Of a DNA stretch of 64,000 nt, positions 2,782-60,633 are shown piece by piece (within the stretch, counting starts at the first letter, position 1; each line of letters starts with the position of its first letter). Under the pieces are notes generated by a model. That model did not search any database. It was given only the letters and a program-made list of their open reading frames with translations, and had not been told where the DNA came from. Both the position numbers and the translations under genes were made by a program. Origin of the DNA: Thermoanaerobaculia bacterium (GTDB lineage Bacteria > Acidobacteriota > Thermoanaerobaculia > UBA5066); contig CAWFJJ010000030.1 in NCBI GenBank assembly GCA_963816185.1, positions 384,001 through 448,000 of the forward strand, read 5' to 3'.

Positions 2782-3353
2782 CGCGAGAACACCGCGAGCT
2801 GGTTCAGGCCGAGGAGAAAACGCCGGTAGAGGACGAGGGAGACGCCAGCCGAACGGCCCGCCTCCTCGAGGGCCGCCCGGCCCAGAAGCGTCTCGTGCTC
2901 GTCGCGGGCGTGCGGCGAGAGGAGGCCGAGGGCCGCGCCCGCCTCCAGGGGCCAGCGGCCGATCGGATGGGGGGTCGTCGCGATCAGGCGGCCCCCCGGA
3001 GAGAGAAGCGGAGAGAGCCGGGAGAGGACGGCGGCAGGGTCCGCGACGTGCTCGAGGACGGCGAGCAGAAGGATTCCTTCGAATGGTCCTTCGCGGACGA
3101 GCGGCGGCGGCGCCTCGGCGCGGGCAATATCCCATTCGAAGAAATCTCTGTTTGGAAATTTCCCGCGCTGGGCCGCCAGCACGTCCGCGTCGCGGTCGCA
3201 TCCGAAATAGACGGGGACGAGGGCTGCGAGGTCCGTCAGCCCGCACCCGACGTCGAGGACGCGCGCGCCGGGAGGCACGTGCGGAAGCGCGGCTGCAAGG
3301 CGCGCCGCCCCGACGCGCACCGTGAGACGTCCGTAGAAAGGCGAGCGCGGCAC
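2778..3353 (-). CDS. Class I SAM-dependent methyltransferase
   Basis: RVLDVGCG motif I, AVLEHVADP, LSPGGRLIATTP. Confidence 0.85.
   Translation of the reverse strand: MPRSPFYGRLTVRVGAARLAAALPHVPPGARVLDVGCGLTDLAALVPVYFGCDRDADVLAAQRGKFPNRDFFEWDIARAEAPPPLVREGPFEGILLLAVLEHVADPAAVLSRLSPLLSPGGRLIATTPHPIGRWPLEAGAALGLLSPHARDEHETLLGRAALEEAGRSAGVSLVLYRRFLLGLNQLAVFSR
3071..3148. repeat. Degenerate inverted motif pair (locus B) inside the methyltransferase
   Basis: GGATTCCTTCGAATGGT (3071-3087) ... CCCATTCGAAGAAATCTC (3131-3148). Confidence 0.55.
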
Positions 3354-3393
3354 CGCGGGGTTTTACACCCTCCAACGTAAGATCGTAGGCCGA

Positions 3394-3879
3394 ATGAGCA
3401 AGGCCCCGTTCACCCTTCGCGAGGCGCGGCCGTCGGACGTGGACGCAATCGTCTCCCTGATCCGCGCCCTCGCCGAGTACGAGAGACAGCCGGAGGATTG
3501 CCACGCCGACGCGAAGCTCCTCGAGGAGCATCTCTTCGGAGAAAAGCGTTTCGCCGAAGTCGTTCTCGCGGAAATGAACGGTGAGACGGTCGGCTTCGCG
3601 CTTTTCTTCCACAACTACTCGACCTGGCTCACGCGGCCCGGCCTCTATCTCGAAGATCTTTTCGTGACGCCCGAACGCCGGGGGCTCGGCATCGGCGAGG
3701 CGCTCCTGACGCATCTCGCGCGGCTGGCGGTGGCCCGCGGCTGCGGGCGAATGGAGTGGAGCGTGCTCACGTGGAACGAGCCGGCGATCCGTTTCTACCT
3801 TCGGCTCGGGGCGGTTCCGATGGAGGGGTGGCAGGTCTACCGGCTCGCCGGAGACGCGCTCGCCCGTCTCGGGCGATAA
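3394..3879 (+). CDS. GNAT N-acetyltransferase (diamine acetyltransferase/SSAT-like)
   Basis: LAEYER, FHNYSTW, LYLEDLFV, RRGLGIG, RMEWSVLTWNEPAIRFY. Confidence 0.9.
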   Translation: MSKAPFTLREARPSDVDAIVSLIRALAEYERQPEDCHADAKLLEEHLFGEKRFAEVVLAEMNGETVGFALFFHNYSTWLTRPGLYLEDLFVTPERRGLGIGEALLTHLARLAVARGCGRMEWSVLTWNEPAIRFYLRLGAVPMEGWQVYRLAGDALARLGR

Positions 3880-3883
3880 TCCG

Positions 3884-5674
3884 GTGGACTCCGAGGTCAA
3901 GACCGTGCAGAAGAGCCGATCACAGACGGACACGCAACCCATCCGCGTCCGCGAAGGACGGAAGGGATCGGGCGTCATCAGGCGTCCCGTGTCCCTGCTC
4001 ATCGATTCTCCCGACCCCACGGCTCTCTTCGACCGCACGGGCCGCGTCCTTCTCGCAAACGAGGCCGCACTCGCCGAAGGCACGCCCGGCCCCGGCAATC
4101 TCGACGAGGCGCCCGGGAGCTCACCGCCGTTCTGGATCACGCCGCCGGGGCGCGACAGCCTCATCGAGGCCGCGGCGAGCCCCGAAGGAGCGAAGAACTT
4201 CGAGGTCCGGATCCCGGCAGGACCCGAGACGGGCGAGCGCGTGTTCTGGGTGACGACGCGCCTCGCCTCGCAGGCGGCCGAAGGGGGATTCATCGCCGCG
4301 GCCCGCGAGGTGACCGGCGCAGCCGGTGAGAAGCTCCGCACCGACTCGGCGGACACCGTGACCGAGCCCGCCGACGCGCTGACGGGCTTCGCGAACCGTG
4401 AGCAGTTTCACTTCGAGCTCGAGCGCGAGCTGGCCCGCGCGGACCTTTTCGGAAGGCCGCTTGCTCTCATCGTCATCGGGCTCGACAACTTCAAGACCTT
4501 GAACGACACCCACGGGCTTCGCGCGGGAGACGAGTATCTCCGCTCCATGGCCGAGACTTTCCGCGGCACCCTCCTCGGGGGAGAGACCGCCGGCCGAGTG
4601 GGGGGCGACGAGATCGCGGTCCTGCTTCCCGGCGCCTCCGCGGCCGAAGCCGCGCCGCGCGCCGAGACCCTCATCGCGCTCATTCGCCGGATGGCGCCCC
4701 TGTGGGAGGGCAATTCGCTCACGCTCACCGCGAGCGCGGGCGTCGCCGTGTTTCCCGAACACGCGGGCGGCGCCGCGGACCTGTTCCTCGCGGCCGACCT
4801 CGCGATGCATCAGGCCAAGCGCCGCGGCGGCGGCCGCGTGCGCCTTCACGACCCGTCGGACCGCGAGCGGGACCGCACCGGTCGGCTCCGCGAGCAGTCG
4901 AACCGCATCCGCGCGTCGCTGGCCGAGTCGCGCTTCGTCCCCTACTTTCAGCCCGTGGCCGAGGTCGGAAGCGGTCGCATCGTGGCCGTCGAGACGCTCG
5001 CCCGCATGCGGGAGTCCGACGGACGCATCGCGCTTCCCGCCGAGTTTCTCGGAGCCGCCGAGCGCTTCGGCATCGTGACGGCGATCGACCGCGCCATCAT
5101 CGCGGCCGCCTTCGACGCCCTCGCGGCGGCCCGCAAGCGCATCAGCCCCGAGCTCGAGATCGGCATCAACCTCTCGGGCCTGGACTTCGACGACGACACG
5201 CTCGTCGCCGACATCTCGCGGATGGCCCGAGCCAAGGGCATCCGCCCGGAGCGCGTCACGTTCGAGATCACCGAGACGGCCGCGCTGCGCGACTTCGACC
5301 GCGTGCGGGACTTCACGCTCGCGCTCACGGGAGAGGGCTTCCACTTCGCGCTCGACGACTTCGGCATGGGCTTCTCCTCGTTCCGCTATCTCCGCGAGCT
5401 GCCCGTCTCCTCTCTCAAGCTCGACATCAGCTACGTGAGGGACCTCCCGAAGGACAAGGCGAACCGCGTCTTCGTGCGGGGCATGGCGGGCATCTGCCGC
5501 GGCCTCGGCGTCAAGACCGTGGCCGAGGGCGTGGAATCGGAGGAAGTCCTCGACCTCCTGCCCGAGCTCGGCGTGGACCGGGCCCAGGGGTGGCACGTGG
5601 GCTATCCGTCGCCGGACCTTCCGGTCGTCGAAACCGGCGCGAGTCTCATCCTGCCGCGGAGGCCGCGGCCCTGA
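3884..5674 (+). CDS. PAS-like/GGDEF/EAL c-di-GMP turnover protein
   Basis: DALTGFANR, RVGGDEI, FQP, ETLAR, EITE, DDFGMG, KLD, AEGVE, QG. Confidence 0.9.
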   Translation: MDSEVKTVQKSRSQTDTQPIRVREGRKGSGVIRRPVSLLIDSPDPTALFDRTGRVLLANEAALAEGTPGPGNLDEAPGSSPPFWITPPGRDSLIEAAASPEGAKNFEVRIPAGPETGERVFWVTTRLASQAAEGGFIAAAREVTGAAGEKLRTDSADTVTEPADALTGFANREQFHFELERELARADLFGRPLALIVIGLDNFKTLNDTHGLRAGDEYLRSMAETFRGTLLGGETAGRVGGDEIAVLLPGASAAEAAPRAETLIALIRRMAPLWEGNSLTLTASAGVAVFPEHAGGAADLFLAADLAMHQAKRRGGGRVRLHDPSDRERDRTGRLREQSNRIRASLAESRFVPYFQPVAEVGSGRIVAVETLARMRESDGRIALPAEFLGAAERFGIVTAIDRAIIAAAFDALAAARKRISPELEIGINLSGLDFDDDTLVADISRMARAKGIRPERVTFEITETAALRDFDRVRDFTLALTGEGFHFALDDFGMGFSSFRYLRELPVSSLKLDISYVRDLPKDKANRVFVRGMAGICRGLGVKTVAEGVESEEVLDLLPELGVDRAQGWHVGYPSPDLPVVETGASLILPRRPRP

Positions 5675-10737: not shown

Positions 10738-11854
10738 GTGGATCCCGACCTCTTCCGGCGACACGCCGTCGCGCTGCGCCTCGCACGCTGGTATCGCCGA
10801 TCGAAGCGCGACTTGCCGTGGCGGAGGACGCGAGATCCGTACGCGATCTGGATTTCCGAGGTCATGCTCCAGCAGACGACCGTCGCGGTCGTCGCGAGAC
10901 GCTGGAAGCGGTTCCTTGCGCGCTTCCCCACGGCGAAGGCGCTCGCCAGGGCGCCCGAGCGCGCGGTCCTCGCCGAGTGGAGCGGCCTCGGGTACTACGC
11001 GCGCGCGCGGAATCTGCACCGCGCGGCCAGGATCGTCGCGGCGGCCGGCACATTTCCACGCACGCTCGAAGGCTGGCGGGAGCTGCCCGGCGTCGGGGCC
11101 TACACGGGCGCGGCGGTGGCCTCGATCGCCTTCGGCGTTCCCGCCGCGGTGGTGGACGGTAACGTCGTGCGCGTCATCTGCCGATTGCTCGGCCTCAGGC
11201 TCGATCCGAAGGCGCCGCGATCGCTCGCGCGCGTGAGGTCGGAGGTGCAGGCGCTCATGCCGGCTCGCGGGGCTGGTGACCACAACCAGGCCCTCATGGA
11301 GCTGGGGGCGCTCGTCTGCACACCCCGCGCGCCGCGGTGCGGCGCGTGCCCGCTCCGCGGCGCGTGCCGCGCCGCGGCGAGTGGGAAGCGCGGAAGGCTT
11401 CCCACGAGCTCCACGACGGGTGAAGCCCAGATCGATTCATCTCGTCGCGGGGATCGTCGAGAGGGAGAAGAGAATCTTGCTCGTAGAAGACAAGATCCTC
11501 GTCGAGGGCCATCTTTGCGTTCCGATGTTCGAGGTTCGCAACGGGCAGCGGTCTGCAAATGTTCTTAGCAGGGGGTGGGAGCGAATCGCGCATCGAAAGG
11601 CCGCCGCGCTCGAGCCGGTGGCCACGCTCAGACACTCGGTATTGAATCGTCGCTATCTCGTTTCTCTATTTACCTTCAAAGAAAAAACGCCCGAGCCCTC
11701 GCGCAGCCGACGACCCGGAGCGGACGAACCGTCGCTTTCCGTGCCCATCCCTCCGAGCCGCATTTCCCTCCTCTCTCCGAGCCAGATCTCCCGGCGCGCC
11801 CACGGTGGCCTGCTCCTGAAGGTGCTGGCGGCCTGGCGGGAGCACGGACGCTGA
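10738..11854 (+). CDS. mutY: A/G-specific adenine glycosylase (frameshift ~11390 between catalytic and NUDIX-like domains)
   Basis: RDLPWR, WISEVMLQQT, WSGLGYYARARNLH, LPGVGAYT, VDGNVVRV, MELGALVCTPRAPRCGACPLRGAC (4Fe-4S). The C-terminus continues in ORF 11276..11854. Confidence 0.9.
11557..11686. repeat. Inverted motif pair (locus C) inside the mutY C-terminal domain
   Basis: AAATGTTCTTAGCAGGGGG (11557-11575) ... CTATTTACCTTCAAAGAAAAA (11666-11686). Confidence 0.65.
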
Positions 11855-11877: not shown

Positions 11878-13731
11878 ATGTCGCGACGCGTGGGCAGGAC
11901 GCCGAAACCGGCGCCGGAGGAGTCCGCTGACTCGCAGACGAACGCCCCGGCGCTCGTCCTCGTCGGGATTCTCGCGGCACTCGCCCTTCCTTTTCTCGTC
12001 TTTTCGACGGCTTCCAGCGAGGCCCTTCGCGAGACGAAGCTCCTCGTGCAGGCGCTCGGGGCGGCTCTCGCGATGTTCGGCCTCGCGCGGAGCGGAACCC
12101 TCCCGTCCTTTGGACGAGGGCGAGCCGCGCGCATGGTCATCCTCGGAATCTTCGCGACTCTCGCTCTCACGCTCCTGTCGGGTCTCGCGAACGCGGACAT
12201 CGTGGACCCTCTGACGGCCGTCGCCATCCTCTCCCCGCTCGCGCTCCTCCTCGCCGGTACATCCCAGCCGGGCGGGCGCGCGGCATCCGCCGCGGCGATC
12301 GCGCTGATGGTTGCCGGCGCCGCCACCGGCGCCCTCGCGGCCCTCCAGCGCTGGGCGGGCCTCTTCCGGCTGCCCCTCGAGGTTCCGGAGCCCCGGTTTC
12401 TGGCGGCGGGCCTCATCGGGAACGCGGGGGACGTCGGGATGGCTCTCGTCGTGCCCGCCCTGCTCCTTTTCACGCGGGCGGCGGAGCCGGGAACGAGCGC
12501 CCGAGCGAAAAGCCTCGCGGCGCTCGGCCTTCTGGCGATTCTTCTCGGCCTCGTGGCGACCGAGGCCGTCGCGCCGGCGCTCGCATTCGGTGGGGGCGTC
12601 GCGGTCTTCGTCGCGCTCGACTTCCGGCGGCGCGCTCTCGCTCTCTCGTCCCTCGTCGTGGCGGCGCTCCTCGCAGTCGCGACCGGAGCGGGGCGTCGCT
12701 TCCTCGTGAAGGTCGACGAGTTCCGCCGCGGCGACCTGGCGTCCGCCACGACGCAGCGCGACATCGGTCTCCTCGCGGGGAGAGAAATGATCCGCGAGCG
12801 ACCCCTCCTCGGAGCGGGACCCGGGGCCTTCTCGAATCGATTCGTTCCCGCGCGTCTCGCGGCGGAGAAGCGCACGAGGCGCCATCTCGTGCACCGAAGC
12901 GGCTCGGCTCACTTCGACAATGCGCACAACGAGCCTGTCACCCTCGCGGCCGAGACCGGCGTGCCCGCCGCGATTGCCAGCGTGGTTGCCTCTTGCGCGC
13001 TTTTCGTGGGACTTCTCGCCCGCCGCAAGCTCGCGCCAACGGCCTCCGGCGGCGACTCGATCGACTCTCTCTTCTCCACGCTCTTCGCCGTTGCGCTTCT
13101 GTCTCTCGGCGACTTCCCGTTCCGGATCGCCGTCGCCTCGGGGCCTGTCGCTTTCTTCGCGGGCGTCGCGCTTCGTCGGGTCGCAGGCGATCAGGGAAAG
13201 CCGGAGATTCCCGCGCGCGGTTCCCGCGTCCTCTTCGCGACGCTTGCCCTGTTGCTCGTCGCTCTCGCGGCCTTGCGATCCCTTGCGACGTTCACTCAGG
13301 CGGATGGGGAGACCCTTCTGCGCGAAGCAGCGTCGGCCCCCGAGGACGCTGAATCCCAGAAGGCGGAGCTTCTCTCTGCGGCCGACGCGCGTCTCGCGCG
13401 TACCGTCGCCCTTCGGCCGCGCTCGGCCACGGCTCTTCTCGCCTGGGGTTCGGTGCAATCGCTGCAGGGTGAGCGCGAGCTCGCGTACGCGCTCTACGCG
13501 CGTTCGGTCCGGCTCGAAGAGCGCGCCGAAAGCGATTTGAATCTCGGCCGTGCCGCGGCGGCCCTCGGGCGAAGCCAGGAAGCACGGGCGCTTCTCGTAC
13601 GCTCCGTCTGGATCCAGCCGCGCCTTTTGGACGACGTGCCGCCCGGCGAACGGGATGCGGTCGCTGCCGCCGTCGCGTCTGCCGAGAAAGCTCTCACCCG
13701 CGGCGGAACGGTTCCCGCCGGGCCGCCTTAG
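11878..13731 (+). CDS. O-antigen ligase/oligosaccharyltransferase-like membrane protein with C-terminal TPR
   Basis: Many TM segments, GLIGN, PLLGAGPGAF, NAHNEPV (Wzy_C), and a TPR-like helical tail. ATG at 11878. Confidence 0.75.
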   Translation: MSRRVGRTPKPAPEESADSQTNAPALVLVGILAALALPFLVFSTASSEALRETKLLVQALGAALAMFGLARSGTLPSFGRGRAARMVILGIFATLALTLLSGLANADIVDPLTAVAILSPLALLLAGTSQPGGRAASAAAIALMVAGAATGALAALQRWAGLFRLPLEVPEPRFLAAGLIGNAGDVGMALVVPALLLFTRAAEPGTSARAKSLAALGLLAILLGLVATEAVAPALAFGGGVAVFVALDFRRRALALSSLVVAALLAVATGAGRRFLVKVDEFRRGDLASATTQRDIGLLAGREMIRERPLLGAGPGAFSNRFVPARLAAEKRTRRHLVHRSGSAHFDNAHNEPVTLAAETGVPAAIASVVASCALFVGLLARRKLAPTASGGDSIDSLFSTLFAVALLSLGDFPFRIAVASGPVAFFAGVALRRVAGDQGKPEIPARGSRVLFATLALLLVALAALRSLATFTQADGETLLREAASAPEDAESQKAELLSAADARLARTVALRPRSATALLAWGSVQSLQGERELAYALYARSVRLEERAESDLNLGRAAAALGRSQEARALLVRSVWIQPRLLDDVPPGERDAVAAAVASAEKALTRGGTVPAGPP

Positions 13732-13824
13732 ATTCTCTTAGAAGGTGAATGAGCGCACGCCGCTCGAATCGCCGCGCCGCCATGTCGATCTGCCCCGACC
13801 CCACTCACCCTTCTAAGAAATTCT
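13731..13824. repeat. Inverted motif pair (locus D), intergenic
   Basis: GATTCTCTTAGAAGGTGAATGA ... CACTCACCCTTCTAAGAAATTC. Confidence 0.85.
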
Positions 13825-34223: not shown

Positions 34224-35569
34224 GCGAGAGGTCGAGCCCGGTGCCAGCGCGACGGCGTGAGAAGCGCACGGGCGATCGCGCGCGCCCACATCGAGAGGGA
34301 AGAAAGAAGATCGGCGAAGGTGACTGCGGGAACTTCGGGGGGATACCCGACGCGGGCGCGGAGCGCGACGAGCGAGAGCCACTCGAAGAGCAACGCAGAT
34401 TTTCCTAGAAGTGAAAGGGCGAAGAGCCAAGCGAGGAGCGCGATGGGTCGCGCCGACGCGCCTGCACCCCCGGCCGCGGCTTCGCCGCTTGCCCGCGCCG
34501 CGGCGGACCACGCGCCACTCGAAGAAAACACCACCATGACGACATCCGAAGCGATCGCAAGAAACGCGAGGGCCAAAAGCACGAAGAGTCGTGGCCTCAG
34601 CCAGAGATCGCACGCGAGAACGAACGCCCCTTTCGGGCTCCTCGCCGCGAGCCGCAGGAGGTCGCCGAAGCCCGTCGCGAGCAGCTTCAGATGCCCGCCG
34701 AGCCACCGCGCGCGCGATCGCGCCATCGCGGCGGCCGCGGGAGCAGGCTCGTCGAACGCGACGGGCGACTCGAGCGCGCGGACGCGGACGCCGTTCGCGA
34801 GAAGAGCGAGCGTCGCCTCCGAGTCCTCAGCCGTCGTCCGCGTCGCGACGGCCGGACCGACGCGAAAGGCCCGCGGTGAGAAGCCCATGGCTTTTCCGCG
34901 CAGCCGCACGGGCAGGCCCTCCGCGTCGCGCGCGAGATCGTCCGCGAGCGCGGCTACGAGAGAGAGCGCCTCGACGCGCGGCGCCCCGGCCCCGGGGACT
35001 CCAGCGGGCCTTACGGGCAGCTGGAATACCTCGGTCTCGTCGGGAACGTTCAGGTCGAGGAAGAATCCGTCCGGGAGGCGCATGTCGGCGTCGAAGACGA
35101 GGATGAACGAGTAATCGTCAAGCTGGTCGCCTAGTTGCTCCTCAAGAAATGCCAGCGCATGCCCTTTCGCAGGACCGGGGATCTTCTTAGAAAGGTATTT
35201 GACTCCGTCCGCTTTGAGGCGCGCCTCGGCACCCGGGTCGGGGCCGTCGAGGAGGACGAGAACGTCGACTCCAAAGGGGATTGCGCTCGCCTCTGCGCCT
35301 GCTGCGCTCTTCACCTTCGAAGAAATCTCTTTCTCGGACTCTCTCGTTCCCTCCCCCTCTCTTCTGAGATCTCCGGCGAGGTCCCCCACCCGCGCGCCCT
35401 CGGCGCGTGACGGGATCACGGCGAGGATCTTCCGGGGGGCGCGGCCGGGCGAAACCGGCGGCGCGCCTGCGCGCGGCGCCGCGAGGCGCCGCCACCTCAG
35501 GAAAGCGTCGTACGCGGGCCCCGCCGCCCACGCGGCGAGGAGACCGCACCCTGTCGTGAGGATGTCCAC
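34220..35569 (-). CDS. Glycosyltransferase family 2 membrane protein
   Basis: VIPSRAE, KGHAL, VFDAD, AED, SRARWLGG, C-terminal TMs; extra segment TRESEKEISSKVKS. Confidence 0.8.
   Translation of the reverse strand: MDILTTGCGLLAAWAAGPAYDAFLRWRRLAAPRAGAPPVSPGRAPRKILAVIPSRAEGARVGDLAGDLRREGEGTRESEKEISSKVKSAAGAEASAIPFGVDVLVLLDGPDPGAEARLKADGVKYLSKKIPGPAKGHALAFLEEQLGDQLDDYSFILVFDADMRLPDGFFLDLNVPDETEVFQLPVRPAGVPGAGAPRVEALSLVAALADDLARDAEGLPVRLRGKAMGFSPRAFRVGPAVATRTTAEDSEATLALLANGVRVRALESPVAFDEPAPAAAAMARSRARWLGGHLKLLATGFGDLLRLAARSPKGAFVLACDLWLRPRLFVLLALAFLAIASDVVMVVFSSSGAWSAAARASGEAAAGGAGASARPIALLAWLFALSLLGKSALLFEWLSLVALRARVGYPPEVPAVTFADLLSSLSMWARAIARALLTPSRWHRARPLA
34398..34530. repeat. Degenerate inverted motif pair (locus E) inside GT2
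   Basis: GATTTTCCTAGAAGTGAA ... CCACTCGAAGAAAACA. Confidence 0.5.
35180..35329. repeat. Inverted motif pair (locus F) inside GT2
   Basis: GATCTTCTTAGAAAGGTA (35180-35197) ... CTTCACCTTCGAAGAAATCTC (35309-35329). Confidence 0.8.
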
Positions 35570-37938: not shown

Positions 37939-38772
37939 CTAACGAAGGCGAGCCACGAGCTGAGGGAGCACGATTCCAAGGCGAAAAAGAGGAAATGCGC
38001 GCGTCAATGCCGCGTGAGCATCCCCTTCCGTCCCGGACTCGAGGGCGCGCCGTACCGCGCTCTGGGCCGTGTCGAGGTACCGGAGCTGGTCTTCGACGCC
38101 CTCTCGGCCGCCGGCCGGCCCGTGCCCCGGCACGAGCATGCGGAACGGAAGGAGACGCAGACTTCCCAGCGCGGCCCGCATCCCCGCGACGTCCGCGTCC
38201 TCGAGGTTCGGGTGATAGCCCGTCGAGACGAGGTCTCCCGCAACGAGGACGCCGAGCGCTGGAGCGTGAACGCAAAGGTCGCCCGGCGTGTGAGCGTGAC
38301 CGGGATGGAGGATCTCCAGCCGGAGTCCTCCCGCCTCCAGGAGAAACGCGTCGGAGACGATTCGCGAGGGGACGTACGGTGCCGCGGATTCGAACAGGTG
38401 CGCGATCTCGGAGTTCCTCCGGCGTTCGGCGATGAGCCCGGGATGCTCTTGCGCCATCCGCGCCGCGGCTTTTTCGTGCGCGACGACCTCGGCGCCCTTC
38501 GCCGCGAAGTAACCCGCGCCGAGCGCGTGGTCCGTGTGGTGATGCGTGAGGACGACATGCGTGACCGGATCGGATGTGCGCGCGCGGAGAAGCGCTTCGA
38601 GCTCGGCCGCCTGCACCGGCGACACGAACGGGTCTACGAGGACGACAGCGCCCTCGCCGAAGAACACCACCGCGTTCGACCCGTAGCTCGTCGCGAGAGT
38701 CTCGCCGCCGTACGTGAAGACCGAGATGGCGTCGGAGAGACGATTCTCGGCGAGAGAAGCGGTGACGCTCAA
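37939..38772 (-). CDS. MBL-fold metallo-hydrolase
   Basis: TTGA overlap with proS; THHHTDHALG, AHTPGD, AGDL, VPGHG. Confidence 0.9.
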   Translation of the reverse strand: MSVTASLAENRLSDAISVFTYGGETLATSYGSNAVVFFGEGAVVLVDPFVSPVQAAELEALLRARTSDPVTHVVLTHHHTDHALGAGYFAAKGAEVVAHEKAAARMAQEHPGLIAERRRNSEIAHLFESAAPYVPSRIVSDAFLLEAGGLRLEILHPGHAHTPGDLCVHAPALGVLVAGDLVSTGYHPNLEDADVAGMRAALGSLRLLPFRMLVPGHGPAGGREGVEDQLRYLDTAQSAVRRALESGTEGDAHAALTRAFPLFRLGIVLPQLVARLR

Positions 38773-40547
38773 GCCGCCAGCGTCTTCGCTCCCGCCGCGA
38801 GCGTCTTCTTGACGAGGTCGACGACGCGGTCCGGCGCGATCTCGGCAGCTTTTCTCTCGCGACGGGTGGAGACCTCGACGACACCCTTCGCGAGGCCCTT
38901 GCCGCCCACGACGACACGCACGGGGAAGCCGATCAGATCCAGATCTTTGAACTTCACGCCCGGACGTTCGTCGCGATCGTCGTAGAAGACCTCGACCCCG
39001 GCAGCCTTGAGGCCTTCGTAGAGCCTGTCCGCCGCCTCGAGAACGTGGGCGTCGCGCTGCAGCGCAGCCACGACGCAGGCGAACGGCGCGAGCGGCAACG
39101 GCCAGATGATTCCGAGCTCGTCGTGGTTCTGCTCGATGGCCGCCGCCACCGTACGGCCGAGGCCGAGTCCGTAGCAGCCCATCGTGAGCGGCACCATCTT
39201 CTGGGCCTGGTCGGCGACCTCGCATTTCATCGCCTCGGAGTATTTCGTTCCGAGCTTGAAGATGTGGCCGACCTCGATGCCACGCCTGATTCTCAGCATG
39301 CCCTTGCCCGTCGGCGAGGGATCGCCCTCTCGCGCGGTCGCAACCTCGACGACGCCCTTGAAGGAAGGCAGCGACATCACGTCGCGCGAAATGCTCACGC
39401 CGGAGTGATGGAGCCCCTCGCGGTTGGCGCCGCACCAGAGGTTCGCGCCGTGTTGGAGGGAACGGTCGACGAAGAGAGGAATCGGATTCTCTTCGAAAGG
39501 AAGAAGACCCAGCGGCCCCACAAATCCGGGCCTCGTCCCGGATACCTTTCTAAGAATCTCCTCCGAAACCAGCTTCACGTGAAGAGCAGCGATCGCTTTC
39601 GGAAGCTTGACCTCGTTGATGTCGAGATCACCACGGATCAGGACGGCCGCGAGCCGCGCCTTGCCGTCCGTACCCACCGCTTCGTAGATCATCGTGTTGA
39701 CGATGCGCGCCGGCGTCGTCCCGAGGTGCTTGGCCTGCCCGTCGGTCGTCGTGATCCCCGGCGTCGGCGCGTTCGCCTCGCCGAACGGCTTCGCCTCTTC
39801 CCCCGCCCACGGCTCCGGCAACGGAGCCGTGACGGCCTTCTCGATGTTGGCGCCGTAGTCGCCCGCCTCCGAGAAGACGAGGGCGTCTTCGCCGGTGTCC
39901 GCCACGACCATGAACTCCTGCGAAGCCGAGCCGCCGATCGCGCCCGAGTCGGCTTCCACGAGCGCGTACTCGAGGTTGCAGCGCTCGAAGATGCGCCGGT
40001 ACGCCGCGTCCATCTTCCGGTAGTGAAGGTCGAGGCCCTTCTCGTCCACGTCGAACGAGTACGCGTCCTTCATGAGGAACTCACGGCCGCGCAGGAGGCC
40101 GAAGCGCGGGCGGATCTCGTCGCGGAACTTCGTGCGGATCTGGTACAGGTTGAACGGGAGCTGCCGCCAGGACGTGACGGAGCGGCGCACCATGTCCGTG
40201 ACGGCCTCCTCGGCCGTCGGCGCGAGCGCGAACTCGCCGCCCTTACGGTCCTCGAGGTGGAAGAGGATCCCGTCGTCCACGTAGCGCTGCCAGCGACCCG
40301 ATTCCACCCAGAGCTCTTTCGGCTGCAGGATCGGGAGGTCGACCTCCATCGCGCCGGTCGCATCCATCTCCTCCCGCACGATGTCGATCATCTTCTTGAG
40401 CGACCGGAATCCGAACGGGGTGAACGAGTAAATGCCCGCGGCAAGCCTGTGGATGAGCCCCGCGCGATAGAGGAGCTGATGTGAGACGACCTCGGCATCG
40501 CCCGGCACCTCACGGAGCGTCACGAGAAACGACTGGGACCAGCGCAT
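38769..40547 (-). CDS. proS: Proline--tRNA ligase
   Basis: MRWSQ, PTAEE, KFRDEIRPRFGLLRGREFLMKDAYSF, GIEVGHIFKLGTKYS, MGCYG. Confidence 0.98.
   Translation of the reverse strand: MRWSQSFLVTLREVPGDAEVVSHQLLYRAGLIHRLAAGIYSFTPFGFRSLKKMIDIVREEMDATGAMEVDLPILQPKELWVESGRWQRYVDDGILFHLEDRKGGEFALAPTAEEAVTDMVRRSVTSWRQLPFNLYQIRTKFRDEIRPRFGLLRGREFLMKDAYSFDVDEKGLDLHYRKMDAAYRRIFERCNLEYALVEADSGAIGGSASQEFMVVADTGEDALVFSEAGDYGANIEKAVTAPLPEPWAGEEAKPFGEANAPTPGITTTDGQAKHLGTTPARIVNTMIYEAVGTDGKARLAAVLIRGDLDINEVKLPKAIAALHVKLVSEEILRKVSGTRPGFVGPLGLLPFEENPIPLFVDRSLQHGANLWCGANREGLHHSGVSISRDVMSLPSFKGVVEVATAREGDPSPTGKGMLRIRRGIEVGHIFKLGTKYSEAMKCEVADQAQKMVPLTMGCYGLGLGRTVAAAIEQNHDELGIIWPLPLAPFACVVAALQRDAHVLEAADRLYEGLKAAGVEVFYDDRDERPGVKFKDLDLIGFPVRVVVGGKGLAKGVVEVSTRRERKAAEIAPDRVVDLVKKTLAAGAKTLAA
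39485..39559. repeat. Inverted motif pair (locus G) inside the proS editing domain
   Basis: GATTCTCTTCGAAAGG (39485-39500) ... TACCTTTCTAAGAATCT (39543-39559). Confidence 0.7.
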
Positions 40548-40556
40548 AGGCGCGCG

Positions 40557-40576
40557 AGAATAGCAGGCGGTAGACT
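40557..40576. promoter_or_regulatory. Divergent -10 elements, probably leaderless
   Basis: TATTCT (-) 9 nt before proS ATG; TAGACT (+) 8 nt before GTG 40585; no SD. Confidence 0.55.
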
Positions 40577-40584
40577 GCGCCCCC

Positions 40585-41901
40585 GTGAACGTCGCCCCCA
40601 CCTTCGATTCGCTCGAAAAGGGCGACGCCGGGCTCTCCGCGCTCGCCCGCGGCGTCGTGGGGTCGGAAATCCTGCGCATCGGCAGCGAGATCCGCGAGAT
40701 GCAGGCGAAGGGTCATCCCGTCTGCAACCTCACGGTCGGCGACTTCGACCCGAAATACTTCCCGATCCCGAAGGAGCTGCTCGACGGCACGCGGAACGCG
40801 CTCGAATCCGGACACACGAATTACCCGCCGGCCGAAGGCATCATGTCGCTGCGCGAAGCGGTCGTTCGCCTCTACGAACGGGACCTCGGGCTCTCGTATC
40901 CCGTGGAGTCCGTCGTCATCGCGGCGGGCGCGAGGCCGCTCCTGTACGGCGCATACCGCACGCTCGTCGATCCCGGCGACACGGCGATCTACCCTGTTCC
41001 GAGCTGGAACAACAACCACTACACGTACCTGTCGGGCGCGCACGGAGTCCCGGTGGTCGTCTCGGCCGCGTCCAACTTCTTCCCGACTCCCGACCAGCTC
41101 CGCCCGCATCTCGTTGAGGCGCGACTTCTCATCCTCAACTCGCCGCTGAATCCCACCGGCACCGTGATCGCGAAGGAGGCCCTCACGGCGATCACGACGA
41201 TGGTCGTCGACGAGAATCGGCGACGCGAGGCGACGGGGAAAAAGCCGCTCTACTTCGTCTTCGACCAGGTGTACTGGACGCTCACGTTCGGAAACGCCGC
41301 GCACCACACGCCCGTCGCGCTCGTGCCAGAAAGCGCGCCGTACGTGATCTTTCTCGACGCGATCTCGAAGGCTTTTTGTGCGACCGGAATGCGCGTGGGC
41401 TGGGGCGTCATGCCTCCCGCCGTGCGCCGGCGCATGTCAGACATTCTCGGCCACGTGGGCGCGTGGGCGCCGAAAGCCGAGCAGGTCGGCGTCGCGGCGC
41501 TCTTGAACCAGCCGGAGACCATCTCCGCTTACCGCGACTCCGTTCGCGACAAGCTCGCCCGGCGCCTCGAATCCCTTTATCGCGGCGTGATGGAGATGAA
41601 GAACGAGGGCTTCCCCGTGGACGCGATCGAGCCGCAGGGCGCCATCTACCTCTCGGCGCGCTTCGACCTTTTCGGCCGCAGGGTGAACGGAACCGTCGTG
41701 AAGACGAACGACGACGTGCGGCGCCTGCTCCTCGAGGCGGGCGTCGGCGTCGTGCCGTTTCAGGCCTTCGGACTCGCAGGCGATACGGGCTGGTTCCGGC
41801 TCTCGGCAGGCGCGGTCTCGATGGACGACATCGCCGCCGCGTTCCCGCGTCTGAGAGCGCTTCTCGCCGCCGCGTCGACGCCCGCGTCCGCGCCGCGCTG
41901 A
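40585..41901 (+). CDS. PLP-dependent class I/II (aspartate-type) aminotransferase
   Basis: NSPLNPTG, FDQVY, DAISKAFCATGMRVGW, WFRLS. Confidence 0.92.
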   Translation: MNVAPTFDSLEKGDAGLSALARGVVGSEILRIGSEIREMQAKGHPVCNLTVGDFDPKYFPIPKELLDGTRNALESGHTNYPPAEGIMSLREAVVRLYERDLGLSYPVESVVIAAGARPLLYGAYRTLVDPGDTAIYPVPSWNNNHYTYLSGAHGVPVVVSAASNFFPTPDQLRPHLVEARLLILNSPLNPTGTVIAKEALTAITTMVVDENRRREATGKKPLYFVFDQVYWTLTFGNAAHHTPVALVPESAPYVIFLDAISKAFCATGMRVGWGVMPPAVRRRMSDILGHVGAWAPKAEQVGVAALLNQPETISAYRDSVRDKLARRLESLYRGVMEMKNEGFPVDAIEPQGAIYLSARFDLFGRRVNGTVVKTNDDVRRLLLEAGVGVVPFQAFGLAGDTGWFRLSAGAVSMDDIAAAFPRLRALLAAASTPASAPR

Positions 41902-44284: not shown

Positions 44285-46036
44285 TCAGTCCGAAGACGAA
44301 GAAGAAGAGAAAGACGAAGACTTCTTAGAAAGGTAAGAGGAGAGGAGGTCCCCCTTGACGACTTTCCCGTAGGGCGTGCGCGGGAGGCTCTCGACGAAGA
44401 CGAAATCCCGTGGGACCTTGTACTTCGCGAGGCGCGCCTCGACGAATGCGGCAAGCGCGCCGCCGCTTCGAAGAAATCCCCTTCGCCTTCCTCTTCCCCT
44501 TCAAGAAATCTTCTCTTCTCTTTCTTCTTTGCGGCGAACGACGAATGCGACGCCGACCTCTCCCCACTTCTCGTCCGGCACGCCGACGACCGCGACGTCC
44601 TTCACGCCCGCGTGCTGGAAGAGCACCCCTTCGACCTCGGCCGGATAGACGTTGACGCCGCCCGAGATGAACATGTCCTTCTTCCGGCCCGCGATCGTGT
44701 AGAAGCCGTCGGCGTCGCGCTTGGCGAGATCGCCCGTATGGAACCAGCCCTCCGCGTCGAGCGGCGGCGGCCGTGGCCTCGGGGTTCCGGAAATAGCCCT
44801 GGCAGACGTGAGGCCCGCGCAGGAGAAGCTCCCCGATCTCGTCCGTGCCCGCCTCGCGGCCGTCCTCGAGGAGGAGCCTCGCCTGAGTGAACATGAGCGG
44901 CTTGCCGATGGAGCCGGCCTTCCTCACGGATTCCTCGGCCGTCATCGCGAAACAGTTCACGCCCACTTCGGTCAGGCCGTAGCCCTGCTTCAGGACGACT
45001 CCTCGCGCCTGCCACGCCTCGATCAGATCGAGGGGCAGCGGAGCTCCCCCGCTGGCGAACCAGCGGACGCTCGAGAAGTCCGCGCCGGCGAATCCCTTCG
45101 CCTCGCGCAGCATCCGGAAGATCGTCGGAACGCCGAGCACGACGGTGCAGCGCTCGCGCGAGATGGTCGCGAGGATCTCTTCCGCGTCGAAGCCGGCGTG
45201 CAGCACGATGGTCCCGCCGATCGCGAAAATCGGCGTGAGGAACGCACCGAGCCCGCCTGCGTGGTAGAGCGGCGTGAAGATCGGGCTGACGTCGTCCTCG
45301 CGGAGCTGCCAGGAGACGGCGGTGTTCACCGCGTTCCATGCCACCATGCGGTGCGGCACCATCACGCCCTTCGGCTTGCCGGTCGTGCCCGAGGTATAGA
45401 GAAGGCAATAGAGATCCTCGGGCGACGGGACGAGAGAAGACGAAGATTCTGCAGCGGCGCCGGTAGGCGCCGCTGGAAGAGGAAGAGAGACGGAACAGAG
45501 GATTTCTTCGAAGGTGAATGAAGGAGAGTGCGCGCCCGCCGGCGGTGCGGTTGGCGCGGCCGGGGAGTCAAGTGCCGCGCCTTTCGAATCTCTTACCCTT
45601 CTAAGCAGGTCCTCTTCGGACCTCCCGGCGCGCTCCGCCGGCTCGTCGAGCGCGACGGGTTCCCGTGTTCCCCTTTTCTAAGCAAATCTCTGACCTTCTC
45701 TTCGAACCCGGCTCCGTAGATCAAGGCCTTCGGCTGCGCGTCTTCGAGGATTCCCGCAAGCTCCCCCGCCGTCTGCCGCGTGTTGAGCGGCACGAGCACG
45801 ATGCCCGTCTTGGCGCACGCGAAGAAGACGTCGAGGAACTCGACGCGGTTGTGGGCGAGAAGCGCGACCCGGTCGCCTTTCCTCAGGCCGAGGCCTTCGG
45901 TGAGCGCACGCGCCGCCGCTTTCGCGCGGGCATCCATCTCCGAGTAAGAGAACCGCCGCCCGGTTGCGACCTCGACGAGCGCCGTCTTGGACGGTGCGAG
46001 GCGCGAGCGCTCGCCGAGGACGTCGCCGGAAATCAC
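44285..46036 (-). CDS. Long-chain acyl-CoA/AMP ligase, interrupted as assembled (two frameshifts and an in-frame TGA)
   Basis: GTG 46036; YTSGTTGKPKG, QGYGLTE, WFHTGD, GRKKDMFISGGVNVYPAEVE, AKYKVPR, LPRTPYGKV. Frame changes at ~45670 and ~44765; TGA at 44501-44503. Confidence 0.85.
44319..44512. repeat. Motif cluster (locus H) in the acyl-CoA ligase 3' end
   Basis: GACTTCTTAGAAAGGTAA ... CGCTTCGAAGAAATCC ... CCCCTTCAAGAAATCTT, with a purine-rich left flank and pyrimidine-rich right flank. Confidence 0.75.
45501..45689. repeat. Motif cluster (locus I) in the acyl-CoA ligase
   Basis: GATTTCTTCGAAGGTGAATGA ... CTTACCCTTCTAAGCAG ... TCCCCTTTTCTAAGCAAATCT. Confidence 0.8.
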
Positions 46037-51675: not shown

Positions 51676-51697
51676 GCGGAAGATGGGGAAAAGAGGA

Positions 51698-51868
51698 GAT
51701 TTCTTAGAAGGGGCATAGGGCGCGCCCGGCGGCGAGCCTCGAGGCGCCAGGTTCCCGGCGCGCCGCGCGTCTATTCACCTTCGAAGAAAAGGTGCCTCTC
51801 CCGGGCTCCTGAGCCTTCTCGCCGCGCTCGGGCCGCCCCCGCGTCCTATTCACCCTCTAAGAAAATCT
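51698..51868. repeat. Motif cluster (locus J), intergenic
   Basis: GATTTCTTAGAAGGGGCATAGG ... CTATTCACCTTCGAAGAAAA ... CTATTCACCCTCTAAGAAAATCT. Confidence 0.88.
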
Positions 51869-54666: not shown

Positions 54667-55643
54667 TCAGGAGGCTGCGAGCGCGAGGCGCCAGTCGCGT
54701 GAGGCCGCGGCTCCAAGCGACACGCCGATGCCCGCGAGCGAGGCGAGACCCCAGACGAGAGGACCCGCGACCGGAACGAGGGACGCGAGGCCGAGGAGGA
54801 GGAGGCCGATGCCGAGCGCAGCCGGATCGCCGAAAAGGAGATCGCCGCGCACGGCGCGGCGCGTCGTGCGGCGGCCCAGGACGACGAACAGAGCCGCGAG
54901 ACCGAAGATCTTCGCCGCGGCGAGAACCCCGAGCAGTGCGACGCCGAGGACGAGCGCGAACCGGGCCGGCAGGGCGGAGAGCGCGAACGCCTCGAGGAAG
55001 AGGGCGGTCAGGACCGCGGTCGCCCCGAGCGCCGCGAGAAACGCGAAGCGGCCTCGAGCTTCGTCCGCCGCCCGGAGGACCGGGCGGGGCGCGAAAAAGA
55101 GGAGGCCGACGGAAACGAGGAGCCAGCACAGGAGCAGAAACAGGCGGAAGGAGAGAATGAGCGGCGAGTTCTTGCCGGACGTCAGAGGCGACGTCTCGAG
55201 CTCGGAGACGACGGCCGCTTCGAGAGCGGTGATCGTCCGGATGTCGGCCCCCGACCTGCGGCGGGAACACGCTCGTCGTCGCGTTCGAAGAGCGGCCACC
55301 GGGGATTTCTTCGAAGGTGAGAGAACCGCCGACCGCAAGCACATCGCCATCGATGACGAGCGCCTCGTTTGATCGTCGCGTCCGCGCCGAGGAGGATCAG
55401 GTCGCGACGAATGTGGCCCGACACGACAGCCGTTCCTCCTCCGACGAGCACCGCGCTTCCTTCCAATTCACCTTCTAGGAAAACCTTCCTTCCGAGAGCC
55501 ACGACGTCGCCGGCGCGGATCGTTCCTTTCGGAATGGACAACGAGCCTTCCTCGGCCTTCGCGCGTGACGAGACTGCCGGAACGAGAATCAAAAGAAGAG
55601 CCAGAATCGCCCGGCTTCCGGTCGAGCGCGTCAAGCAGCTCAC
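54667..55643 (-). CDS. Membrane protein with polymer-forming (bactofilin-like) beta-repeat N-terminus (two frameshifts)
   Basis: Pieced from three ORFs: signal peptide + GDVVALG/GSAVLVGG/RDLILLG, then GDVLAVGG, then a multi-TM C-terminus ending LVPVAG...GIG. Confidence 0.7.
55304..55485. repeat. Inverted motif pair (locus K) inside a CDS
   Basis: GATTTCTTCGAAGGTGAGA ... AATTCACCTTCTAGGAAAACC. Confidence 0.75.
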
Positions 55644-58888: not shown

Positions 58889-60537
58889 ACGCGACCTTCC
58901 GATGGAACTCCGCGCGGGCCGCGGGGCGGACGCTTCTGGCAGGCGACTCCCGCGGGCGCCTCGCCACCTTCGCGGGACTCGGCGCTCTCCTCGCGTTCAC
59001 CGGCCTGGAAACGGTCGGCCTGGAGGGTGCCCTCCGCGCCTCGCGCGCCGCCCTGGGCGAGCTGCCCGAGATCCGGCCTGCATTTCTCCTCGAGCGCCTC
59101 CTCGGGCTCGCGTTCGCGGCCGCCCTCGCCCTTGGATTCCTCGGATCGCTCACGACGGCGATCTCCACGCTCTTCCTCTCGGACGAGCTCGGCGCCCTGT
59201 GCGTCCTTCCCTTCGCGCACCGGCGTCTCGTCTTGAGGCAGGCGTTTCTCACGCTCGCCCTCGCGTCCGCGCCGGCGGTTCTCCTTTCGATCCCCGCCCT
59301 TCTCGTCGCCGCTCTCGCCACCCGCCGTCCGCTTCTCGCGTTCGCAGCGGGCGCCGTGCCGCTCGCCGGCGTGATGCTCCTCGCGGGCGCGACAGGGATC
59401 GCGGCGGCTCTCCTCCTCGTACGCCTCGTGCCCCCGAGGCGCGCCCGCCTGCTCGCGGCCTTCCTGTCGGCGACCGGCCTCGCCGCGGCCCTCGTCGGCT
59501 TCCGTGCCGCCCGGCCGGAGCGCCTTCTCGATCCGACCGAGGCTCTCGCCGTCGTGACGCGCCTGGGTGCCGTGCGCCCCTCTTCGCCGGGACTCCAACC
59601 GGCCGCGTGGGCCGCACGCGCAGCGACGCGCGGCCTCTTCGGCGACGCGGGGGGCCTCGCTCCAGGCGTTGCGCTCTTTCTCGCAGGCCTGGCCGTCTTT
59701 CTTCTCGTTCCGACCGCTCTCTGGCGCCTCCATCTCCACGTGCTCCGCGACTCGTGGCCGGGATCGGCGGCGACGGCTGGCCCGGCGGGCCGCGGCTCCG
59801 AGGCCCGTTCGCTCGGCGGGGTGCTCGTGCGCTCCGAAGCGGCGAGTCTTCTCCGCGACGCCTCGACGCCGGCGCAGCTCGGGTCGTTGGCCGCCGTGTT
59901 CCTGCTCGACCTGATGAACGTCCGGCTCCTGCCAGGGACGGACGCCGCCGCACGCGACCTCGTGGCGGGTTTGCAGACCGGCCTCTCGCTCTTCCTCGTC
60001 TCCGCGCTGTCGCTGCGCTTCGCCTATCCGTCGGTCTCGTCCGACGGCCGCGCGGCGCTCGTCCTCCGGACGCTGCCCCTCGACCCGCGGCTCCACCTCT
60101 TCGTCCGGTGGGCCGTCCGCGCCTTTCCGGCCGCGGGCGTCGGCCTCGCCCTGACCGGCGCCAGCCTGCTCGTCCTCCGGCCCGGAAAGACGATCTCCGC
60201 GCTCGCGCTCGTCGCGGCGTTCGCCGGGAGCCTCGCGATTCCGGCGCTCCACGTCGGCCTCGGCGCCCTTTTCCCGCGCTACGACGCGCCGAACGCGGTG
60301 AGCGTGGCGCTCTCCACGGGAGGACTTTTCGCCCTCGTATTCTCGACGGGGCTCTCGCTGTTCTCGACGCTCGTCGTATCCGCGGAGCTGCAGACGCTGC
60401 TCGGAACACTTCTGAAGATCCGGATGGGGCCCTTGCCGCTCCTCACTGCGTTCCTCATCCTGGCGGTGGCCGCTGCGATCGTCCCGCTGGCACTAGCCGC
60501 GCGGTCGCTCGCGACAAAAGACATCGCCATCGGGTGA
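58885..60537 (+). CDS. Putative ABC exporter permease
   Basis: GTGA overlap; TLFLSDEL, LRFAYPSVSSDG, many TMs. Confidence 0.85.
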   Translation: MNATFRWNSARAAGRTLLAGDSRGRLATFAGLGALLAFTGLETVGLEGALRASRAALGELPEIRPAFLLERLLGLAFAAALALGFLGSLTTAISTLFLSDELGALCVLPFAHRRLVLRQAFLTLALASAPAVLLSIPALLVAALATRRPLLAFAAGAVPLAGVMLLAGATGIAAALLLVRLVPPRRARLLAAFLSATGLAAALVGFRAARPERLLDPTEALAVVTRLGAVRPSSPGLQPAAWAARAATRGLFGDAGGLAPGVALFLAGLAVFLLVPTALWRLHLHVLRDSWPGSAATAGPAGRGSEARSLGGVLVRSEAASLLRDASTPAQLGSLAAVFLLDLMNVRLLPGTDAAARDLVAGLQTGLSLFLVSALSLRFAYPSVSSDGRAALVLRTLPLDPRLHLFVRWAVRAFPAAGVGLALTGASLLVLRPGKTISALALVAAFAGSLAIPALHVGLGALFPRYDAPNAVSVALSTGGLFALVFSTGLSLFSTLVVSAELQTLLGTLLKIRMGPLPLLTAFLILAVAAAIVPLALAARSLATKDIAIG

Positions 60538-60633
60538 CCTTCTAAGAAGATCTTCTTAGAAGGGTGAATGAGCGAGGCGCTCATGAGCAAGGCGTCGGCC
60601 TGGCAACCGGCACGGGACCTTCTAAGCAAAGAT
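60535..60633. repeat. Motif cluster (locus L) between convergent genes, containing a perfect 26 bp palindrome
   Basis: CCTTCTAAGAAGATCTTCTTAGAAGG (60538-60563), then GTGAATGA ... ACCTTCTAAGCAAAGAT. Confidence 0.88.

Follow-up and report, generated by a model that had tools for sequence, protein, structure and literature searches.

A 64,000-nucleotide stretch of the genome of an uncultured soil acidobacterium within Thermoanaerobaculia (the window, positions 384001–448000 of contig C30 in the source genome, G000) carries copies of a short word, TTCTTMGAAGG, arranged in pairs that face one another across unique sequence, and one such pair lies inside the essential gene for prolyl-tRNA synthetase, proS, where it brackets a conserved loop of the editing domain. 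On the evidence of the sequence comparisons set out here, most of the genic words that could be compared were written over the gene's own DNA, through substitutions and short indels in loops where the protein varies, and they enclose orthologous sequence. In what follows, one copy of the word is called an arm, and two arms that face each other on a contig (plus then minus) are called a unit. The G000 assembly comprises 5.09 Mb in 30 contigs with 62–69% G+C, and its gene calls are rough ones made within this analysis.

The word is asymmetric, AT-rich, and 11–12 bp long, and it sits in a GC-rich genome. In the form TTCTTMGAARG it is found 14 times in the window against an expectation of 0.08, a count reached by none of 100 shuffles. 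When the 10-mers of the whole genome are ranked, the most enriched real words are fragments of one motif, with TTCTAAGAAA present in 239 copies compared with the 0.6 expected from base composition. Aligned and oriented sites give the core T-T-C-T-T-M-G-A-A-G/A-G, in which M stands for A in 56% of cases and for C in 36%, and the flanks of the core are purine-rich on both sides of the same strand; in noncoding DNA the word is embedded in longer purine-rich arms of about GAGATTTCTTAGAAGGTGAATGGGG. A scan of the genome with a position weight matrix (PWM) returns 790 arms at 16 bits or more compared with approximately 72 in a reversed-sequence control, and the density of arms genome-wide is about one per 6.4 kb. 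The shuffles and the reversed-genome control rule out chance or base composition as the origin of the word.

The arrangement of the arms is strongly polar. Among neighboring arms in the plus-then-minus order, 238 of 268 lie 31–300 bp apart, whereas the same is true of only 11 of 259 neighbors in the minus-then-plus order. At a threshold of 14 bits the genome holds 265 facing pairs, and the 5th, 25th, 50th, 75th, and 95th percentiles of their center-to-center spacing are 61, 78, 95, 149, and 224 bp, a distribution with its floor at about 60 bp, its mode at 75–78 bp (approximately 76 bp), and a long tail, together with a spike at 93 bp that comes from a single family of paralogues. The interiors of the units are not copies of one another: 228 of the 265 match nothing in the genome except themselves, and interiors resemble one another no more than shuffled ones do, the best local scores between them being 12.7 against 11.6 and 14.0 against 12.4 for shuffled sequence, with two of 28 exceeding every shuffle. 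More than half of the units (152 of 265) lie within predicted genes.

The unit in proS is the one for which in-place origin can be followed codon by codon, and its parts are as follows, with 5′ and 3′ sides given in the sense of the gene.

38769–40679, minus strand: proS, intact, prolyl-tRNA synthetase with editing domain (Pfam tRNA-synt_2b, tRNA_edit, and HGTP_anticodon).
39543–39561, minus strand: 5′-side arm GGAGATTCTTAGAAAGGTA, encoding EEILRKV, 25.4 bits by PWM.
39503–39542, minus strand: unit interior, SGTRPGFVGPLG, the gene's own coding sequence for part of the ProRS editing domain (Pfam tRNA_edit, residues 306–424).
39484–39502, plus strand: 3′-side arm, GGATTCTCTTCGAAAGGAA on the plus strand, encoding LLPFEEN, 18.9 bits by PWM.

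The true start of proS is probably Met44, near position 40550. The original prediction, made from the letters of the window and its open reading frames (ORFs), had placed a motif pair within one or two bases of these arms and had held that it encloses a conserved loop of the editing domain, and both points are borne out, since SGTRPGFVGPLG falls inside tRNA_edit. In the 3′-side arm, the C variant of the word avoids an in-frame TAA. The closest proS loci are all from metagenome-assembled genomes, and we aligned G000 with 17 relatives of its own genus (drawn as L001–L018, leaving out G006, in which the match is broken). Both arms are present, at the same codon positions, in all 18 sequences. In the 5′ arm ATT is present in 18 of 18, CTT in 13, and AGA or CGA in 17, and in the 3′ arm TTC is present in 18 of 18, GAA in 10, the next GAA in 16, and AAT in 14. 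Between the arms, third positions and synonymous sites vary freely from species to species, while the arms keep their AT-ending codons.

The nearest proS from a word-poor relative (L057, 76% identical, in genome G074, which holds 16 copies of the word) is collinear with that of G000 and of equal length and has unrelated codons at both arm positions, and the words in proS therefore arose by substitution. Where the genus has ATT CTT AGA AAG GTA TCC in the 5′ arm, L057 has CGG CTC GCC GGG ATC GCG, and where the genus has CTT CCT TTC GAA GAG AAT in the 3′ arm, L057 has ACG AAC GGG GAC GGG ACC. In a comparison across phyla, 76 of 80 proS loci could be aligned, and the G..PG..GP residues of the interior are in register in all 76. 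EEILRK is found in only three of the 76, all of them close relatives (L055, L058, and L056), and the PF[EK]xN arm in two of these; more distant proS groups are 3–6 residues shorter at the second arm. The codon comparison that the original prediction had called for thus yields an interior collinear with its orthologues and arm codons replaced relative to L057, and unrelated phyla carry neither the arm residues nor the arm codons, nor is the interior an insertion.

For the units in genes more generally, the outgroup was 2.8 Mb of contig C1 of G074, which is about two-thirds of that one genome. An open frame through the unit with at least 35 codons on each side is found for 198 of the 265 units, of which 126 match the outgroup, 93 match on both sides, and 82 are anchored, that is, matched to within 12 residues of both arms with a flank identity of at least 0.4; a comparison of this kind is blind to units in fast-evolving or lineage-specific genes. 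The interior is aligned with the outgroup in 66 of the 82 anchored units, which fall into the following classes.

Collinear, with an aligned interior and no more than 2 amino acids of net change: 35 of 82 units.
Interior aligned, G000 longer by 3–10 amino acids: 23 of 82 units.
Interior aligned, G000 longer by more than 10 amino acids: 6 of 82 units.
Interior aligned, G000 shorter: 2 of 82 units.
Whole unit extra in G000: 4 of 82 units.
Mixed class: 12 of 82 units.

It had been proposed that the pairs bracket resident DNA and are not simple insertions of miniature inverted-repeat transposable elements (MITEs). The collinearity of proS with L057 and the small number of whole-unit extras uphold this for most of the genic units compared; as a statement about the whole genome it needs qualification, since G000 is longer by at least 3 amino acids in 29 of the 82 and the unit in the linker of UvrA is insertion-like. 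It had further been proposed that the pairs arose either by selection for paired sites or by a process that writes them in place, and both alternatives stand. Across the 82 units, mean identity to the outgroup falls from 0.63 in the flanks to 0.53 in the interiors and 0.49 in the arms, so that the interiors are not especially conserved, and the outgroup has the core word within the matching span at 17 of the 82 loci. Because 14 of the 82 belong to Ser/Thr protein kinase paralogues that share one unit, they are not independent, and without them the interior is aligned in 52 of 68.

The kinase family itself has approximately 14–17 paralogues with the unit at a common position (EEFFEGEE...RFEREAKLLASLNHPNI...SFEEI, spacing 93), which are located on C24:602894-620857 and on C23, C28, C29, C30, C4, C5, C6, and C8. 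In outgroup kinases the residues at the arm positions are similar, and the core word is mostly absent.

What is kept in the arms is the nucleotides. Across the 142 units located within predicted genes, all three reading frames are used for the word in each of the two arms. At its variable position the word has A wherever this base does no harm, in 28 of 30 cases for one 5′-arm frame and in 15 of 19 and 43 of 56 for two 3′-arm frames, and it has C or T in 45 of 48 and 66 of 67 cases where A would create TAG or TAA, with A being the base in 95 of 130 arms outside predicted genes. The use of all three frames together with the stop-avoiding choice of the variable base shows that the nucleotides, and not the peptide, are kept, and the use of all three frames rules out a motif at the protein level.

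The word has a narrow taxonomic range. Counting TTCTTMGAAGG on both strands, there are 86–392 copies in G000 and in each of 26 of 26 sampled genomes of its own genus, 12–76 copies in all eight genomes of the sister genus g17, 0–9 copies in 26 genomes from the other eight genera of the family, and 1–10 copies in 12 genomes from two other families of the order, a result that is unchanged without the unpublished G019 and G024. A reversed-read control gives 0–16 copies in all sampled genomes. Since the enrichment is present in 26 of 26 genomes of the genus, many from separate assemblies, an artifact of assembly or binning is ruled out. In viral contigs a 16-mer of the arm matched 92 times, always singly and never as a pair, which for so large a collection is near chance level by our own estimate and provides no lead to a mobile parent. 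No description of a paired-word system was found in the literature searched, which lay within open journals, where the word strings matched only primers and unrelated items, and no literature was found on Thermoanaerobaculia in connection with inverted repeats.

We favor, with somewhat less than even confidence, the reading that the paired words bind a lineage-specific protein and, having arisen in place, persist through selection or biased fixation. The two copies of the word, which face each other across 40–250 bp of unique sequence, would act at the level of DNA, and a putative sequence-specific DNA-binding protein would bridge the two inverted sites in the manner of transposases, invertases, and looping regulators. 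The bending needed to join two bound sites may account for the floor near 60 bp and for the preference for about 76 bp. Within genes, the words were mostly built in place, and their nucleotides would then be held by selection or biased fixation, and the sites in general may have spread by point change under the same forces. The outcome of bridging could be, for example, organization of the nucleoid or a controlled DNA transaction.

The word, its pairing, orientation, spacing, taxonomic range, in-place origin, conservation (read in proS and the ligase), and independence of frame are shown by the sequences, whereas the protein, its bridging of the sites, and the outcome of bridging are inferred. 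Several observations weigh against this reading. Many looping proteins impose helical phasing, and the unit spacings genome-wide have no 10.5-bp phasing; the broad range of spacing, 40–300 bp, sits loosely with a rigid bridge. Copy number differs 4.5-fold among genomes of the genus, and intergenic units turn over between species, a pattern that fits a selfish or drive process as well: the unit at 13730–13824 is missing in G011, which has a 41-nt spacer whose boundaries are not clean, and is represented by a single arm in G003. These absences, the longer arms (about 25–30 nt) carried by intergenic units of the common size of approximately 95 bp, and variation in tandem number and copy number show that gain, loss, and duplication of arms all take place at the time scale of the genus. 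Finally, the likeness of the arm to the 3′ end and trailer of 16S rRNA could point to a role at the RNA level.

The word might instead be favored in DNA uptake or in recombination between cells, in the manner of uptake sequences or HIP1, and be fixed without benefit to the cell, a possibility that we consider unlikely, if one to be taken seriously. It would account for a taxon-specific word that arises in place by substitution, for a copy number that varies within the genus and is intermediate in the sister genus, and for the occurrence of the word in every reading frame and where residues are less conserved (identity 0.49 in arms compared with 0.63 in flanks); Findlay and Redfield likewise report many copies of uptake sequences inside genes, at poorly conserved residues (PMC2817400). 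To that extent the word resembles the uptake signal sequences (USS) of Pasteurellaceae and the DNA uptake sequences (DUS) of Neisseriaceae, which are taxon-specific short words present in hundreds of copies in several frames and generated by substitution and not by insertion. HIP1 is over-represented in and between ORFs and conserved within them, as is the word in G000, and is thought to be selected, with no RNA or peptide role and perhaps one in chromosome structure (PMC5861425); a second source describes it as an 8-bp palindrome linked to methyltransferases (PMC4390886). The G000 word differs from this cyanobacterial palindrome in being asymmetric, with the 238-to-11 polarity, AT-rich in a GC-rich genome, and strictly paired. 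USS, DUS, and HIP1 act singly, and drive does not predict the facing bias, the spacing floor, or the mode near 76 bp. The competence genes for ComEC and DprA, found in G000, occur equally in the motif-free genomes tested (five of five) and so do not explain the distribution of the word. One arm per 6.4 kb is a lower density than that of the classic cases.

More improbable is that the arms are the terminal inverted repeats of a transposon family whose MITE-like remnants also insert in frame into genes. Repetitive extragenic palindromes (REP), bacterial interspersed mosaic elements (BIME), and REPINs are inverted short repeats of approximately 100 bp, present in hundreds per genome, extragenic and hairpin-forming, that travel with a gene for a REP-associated tyrosine transposase (RAYT), and the units share with REP and REPIN the two conserved inverted short repeats, the overall size, the number per genome, and the frequent location between genes. 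They differ in that more than half of the G000 units lie in ORFs, the arms have no hairpin covariation, and RAYT is missing: a search limited to the Y1 family found Y1/RAYT transposase (PF01797) nowhere in G000 and in two of 18 genus relatives. Rickettsia palindromic elements, which are in-frame MITEs, are inserted as whole homologous copies, and like them the G000 repeat occurs inside essential coding genes with the frame unbroken and a minority of units look inserted, but in 66 of the 82 testable units the interior is the gene's own sequence, and interiors are nonhomologous. The common size and long arms of intergenic units, the unit missing at the orthologous G011 site, the location of the UvrA unit within an insertion of approximately 65 amino acids, the four whole-unit extras and the 29 units with extra residues, the tandem-arm number that differs between species, and the copy number that differs widely between genomes would all suit a mobile element. 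Against it stand the very variable unit length and the collinearity of proS and 34 other genic units with a word-poor relative. At the ends of the units, purine-rich sequence on one side is matched by pyrimidine-rich sequence on the other, which makes the flanks inverted and not direct repeats, without a target-site duplication; in G000, no longer element recurs among the 23 facing arm pairs that lie 300–6000 bp apart.

Still less probable is an element that works in RNA, with the arms pairing in the transcript or being cut by a ribonuclease, or, in one version, with the word mimicking the 16S 3′ end and trailer and their complement. The last version derives from the reverse arm, TCACCT-TCTAAGAAATCTC, which when aligned by eye with the genome's own 16S end, GGATCACCTCCTTTCTAAGGGATCTC, agrees in 17 of the 19 bases aligned and needs one 4-nt gap, a comparison that is partly post hoc because it was made after a Shine-Dalgarno-like stretch had been spotted. 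We count this likeness as a lead only. The 16S 3′ end with trailer is TCACCTCCTTTCTAAGGGATCTC, at C1:445546-445575, and the predicted duplex of the arms with this 30-base tail and trailer averages −18.4 kcal/mol compared with −13.4 for purine-rich genomic 25-mers and −9.3 for shuffled arms. With the mature-like tail alone, however, arms pair no better than the purine-rich controls (−9.0 versus −10.4 kcal/mol). Pairing between partner arms is not supported either. Partner arms are only approximately 35–45% complementary outside the 9–11-base core and have no covariation beyond the consensus (z of about 0 at all 64 positions), and oppositions on the sense strand are as often A-C as G-U (513 and 526). 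The consensus fold of the 18 proS sequences is −2.9 kcal/mol, with none of its 15 pairs compensated; interiors fold only slightly better than random segments (z of −0.64 versus −0.22), and an Rfam scan of the window gave no family at the gathering score. As a separate observation, the rRNA leader holds the arm-like pieces TTTTCGAAGAGAG and AGAAATCTC.

We hold least likely of all that the words are the recombination sites of one invertase, making the units intragenic invertons, open to inversion or excision, throughout the genome. The geometry would fit, as inverted repeats surround short segments in genes too, and intragenic invertons with that arrangement have been reported in bacteria in a preprint (PMC10028968). 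The units differ from these in that no orientation variants were seen, the proS interior lying in one orientation in all 18 sequences, and in that flipping closes most host frames: an in-silico flip leaves the frame open in 44 of 126 units compared with 58% of 3780 matched control segments, and since this is less often than in the controls, coding in both orientations is not what the units are made for. In contigs of four metagenome runs, whose cover is thin and fragmentary and which as contigs hide rare variants, there are no joints at units, and one metagenome contig passes straight through the proS unit. The core, at only 9–11 bp, has no obvious crossover spacer, and we know of no precedent for an inverton in which one repeat is common to approximately 265 sites. 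Template-switch (quasi-palindrome) mutation was also considered as the writer of the words; under it, the two arms of a pair should be more alike than either is to other arms, which is not seen, though old events would have lost the signal. Type III restriction sites, Chi pairs, and Ter-like polar barriers, which were considered too, are not known to predict enriched close facing pairs.

Returning to the binding-site reading, a more specific form of it, possible in our view although doubtful, is that a genus-specific protein machine reads two facing words and acts on the segment of DNA between them. If so, the pairs would mark chromosome segments for synapsis, for protected or targeted repair, or for segment-wise exchange between cells, and the sites would have been written into genes, essential ones included, by selection or drive for that operation. 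This would constitute a new genome-wide paired-site system distinct from single-word uptake sequences, Chi, and HIP1. Such hyper-abundant words are rare cases of selection or drive on DNA across coding genes, and the function of HIP1 is debated; what is new here is the strict geometry, in which asymmetric words face each other in pairs, never closer than a minimum distance and most often at a preferred one, and which is found in none of those systems. The proS unit also shows how far an essential ProRS tolerates rare codons and altered loop residues imposed by a signal at the DNA level. The contrast in copy number between the genus, the sister genus, and the rest of the family makes it feasible to search by co-distribution for a protein that reads the word.

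The window contains nine units, starting at 816, 11557, 13730, 35179, 39484, 44317, 45499, 51696, and 55302, and solo arms in addition. Apart from the proS unit, its features are the following, with no strand given where none applies.

816–926, minus strand: insertion-like unit in the inter-domain linker of UvrA, with arms at 816–834 (plus) and 908–926 (minus).
11557–11688: genic unit u217, collinear with the outgroup (net change 0 amino acids, interior fully aligned), one of its arms being in the scan at 16 bits or more.
13730–13824: intergenic unit of the common size of approximately 95 bp, directly after a stop codon.
35179–35329, minus strand: unit in a GT2 gene, with arms at 35179–35197 (plus) and 35311–35329 (minus) that encode EKEISSKV and YLSKKI around VDVLVLLDGPDPGAEARLKADGV.
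44317–44335, plus strand: tail arm of the C-terminal unit of an acyl-CoA ligase gene, encoding YLSKKS, 27.5 bits.
44336–44461, minus strand: interior of the ligase C-terminal unit, ALAAFVEARLAKYKVPRDFVFVESLPRTPYGKVVKGDLL, AMP-binding_C profile positions 45–76, aligned in relatives.
44462–44511, minus strand: two tandem 5′-side arms of the ligase C-terminal unit, in the loop after VAFVV; the inner arm is 44462–44480, and the outer is one base short, with an in-frame TGA at 44501–44503.
45499–45689, minus strand: ligase N-terminal unit, with arms at 45499–45517 (plus) and 45671–45689 (minus), frame broken in G000.
51696–51868: intergenic group of three arms (51696 plus, 51775 minus, 51850 minus) between two minus-strand genes.
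55302–55486, minus strand: unit in a gene for a glycine-rich repeat protein, with arms at 55302–55320 (plus) and 55468–55486 (minus) that encode KVFLEGE and LTFEEIP.
60535–60566: two overlapping back-to-back arms (minus then plus) in a 31-nt near-perfect palindrome, a rare divergent arrangement.

In the case of the ligase, the pair formed by the tail arm and the inner arm encloses conserved domain sequence, as had been predicted. AMP-binding_C positions 1–39 stop just before the arms, and the interior includes ...LAKYKVPRDFVFVESLPRTPYGKV..., with a lysine that we take to be the catalytic one. The loop after VAFVV holds one to three tandem arms (EEKISLKV, EKISSKV) in all eight genus relatives read, with frames open, and the tail arm is kept as YLSKKS or YLSRKS in seven of the eight and decayed in G004. 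Each tandem arm has its own purine-rich leader encoding a peptide rich in E, K, and R (44462–44511 and loci L047–L054), and beyond the tail arm there is a serine-rich run of variable length. The N-terminal unit is open and in frame in seven of eight relatives (EDLLRRV...TFEEI), with G006 having stops upstream, and its 3′ arm word is kept in seven of eight, G016 being without it. The copy in G000 is disrupted by the in-frame TGA and by frame changes that include a 1-base indel at 44761/2, and the gene is intact in relatives; the base at 44761/2 is missing from contigs of three of the four metagenome runs.

The other two genes in which pairs had been said to enclose ordinary domain sequence fare differently. 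For GT2, 84% of the interior residues align with the outgroup orthologue, and G000 is 22 amino acids longer there. For the gene that had been labeled bactofilin-like the label is not confirmed: it encodes a glycine-rich repeat protein with no Pfam family at E ≤ 0.01, and its frame is broken inside the unit, where one contig of run X1 lacks the base at 55359. The frame breaks in this gene and in the ligase are either assembly indel errors in low-complexity DNA or signs of genes decaying in the strain.

In UvrA, residues 147–222 of the query face only 11 residues of Thermotoga maritima UvrA (3pih), and the linker is approximately 65 amino acids longer than in solved UvrA structures. The UvrA-like frame (window positions 1–4356, minus strand) extends upstream into a long arginine/proline-rich stretch that is probably noncoding. 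The palindrome at 60535–60566 is centered on GATC and lies at the stop of a plus-strand gene, and there are few such divergent cases genome-wide.

Arm density per 100 kb is uneven among contigs, at 24–28 on C24, C28, and C21, 9–10 on C25, C8, and C5, and 4.9 on C29, differences that could stem from chromosome position, a second replicon, or contamination (estimated at 3.4%). At C10:1147-2239, in a contig of 15.6 kb, 1028 A are followed by 65 T, a run that is almost certainly an assembly artifact. The densest cluster of arms is at C28:32000-38000, with 10 arms of at least 16 bits in the 4 kb that begin at C28:33929 and 13 arms of at least 14 bits across 32.7–37.6 kb. Judged by their translations, the genes of this cluster are housekeeping genes of aspartate-family and lysine biosynthesis, among them a diaminopimelate decarboxylase-like gene with several in-frame arms.

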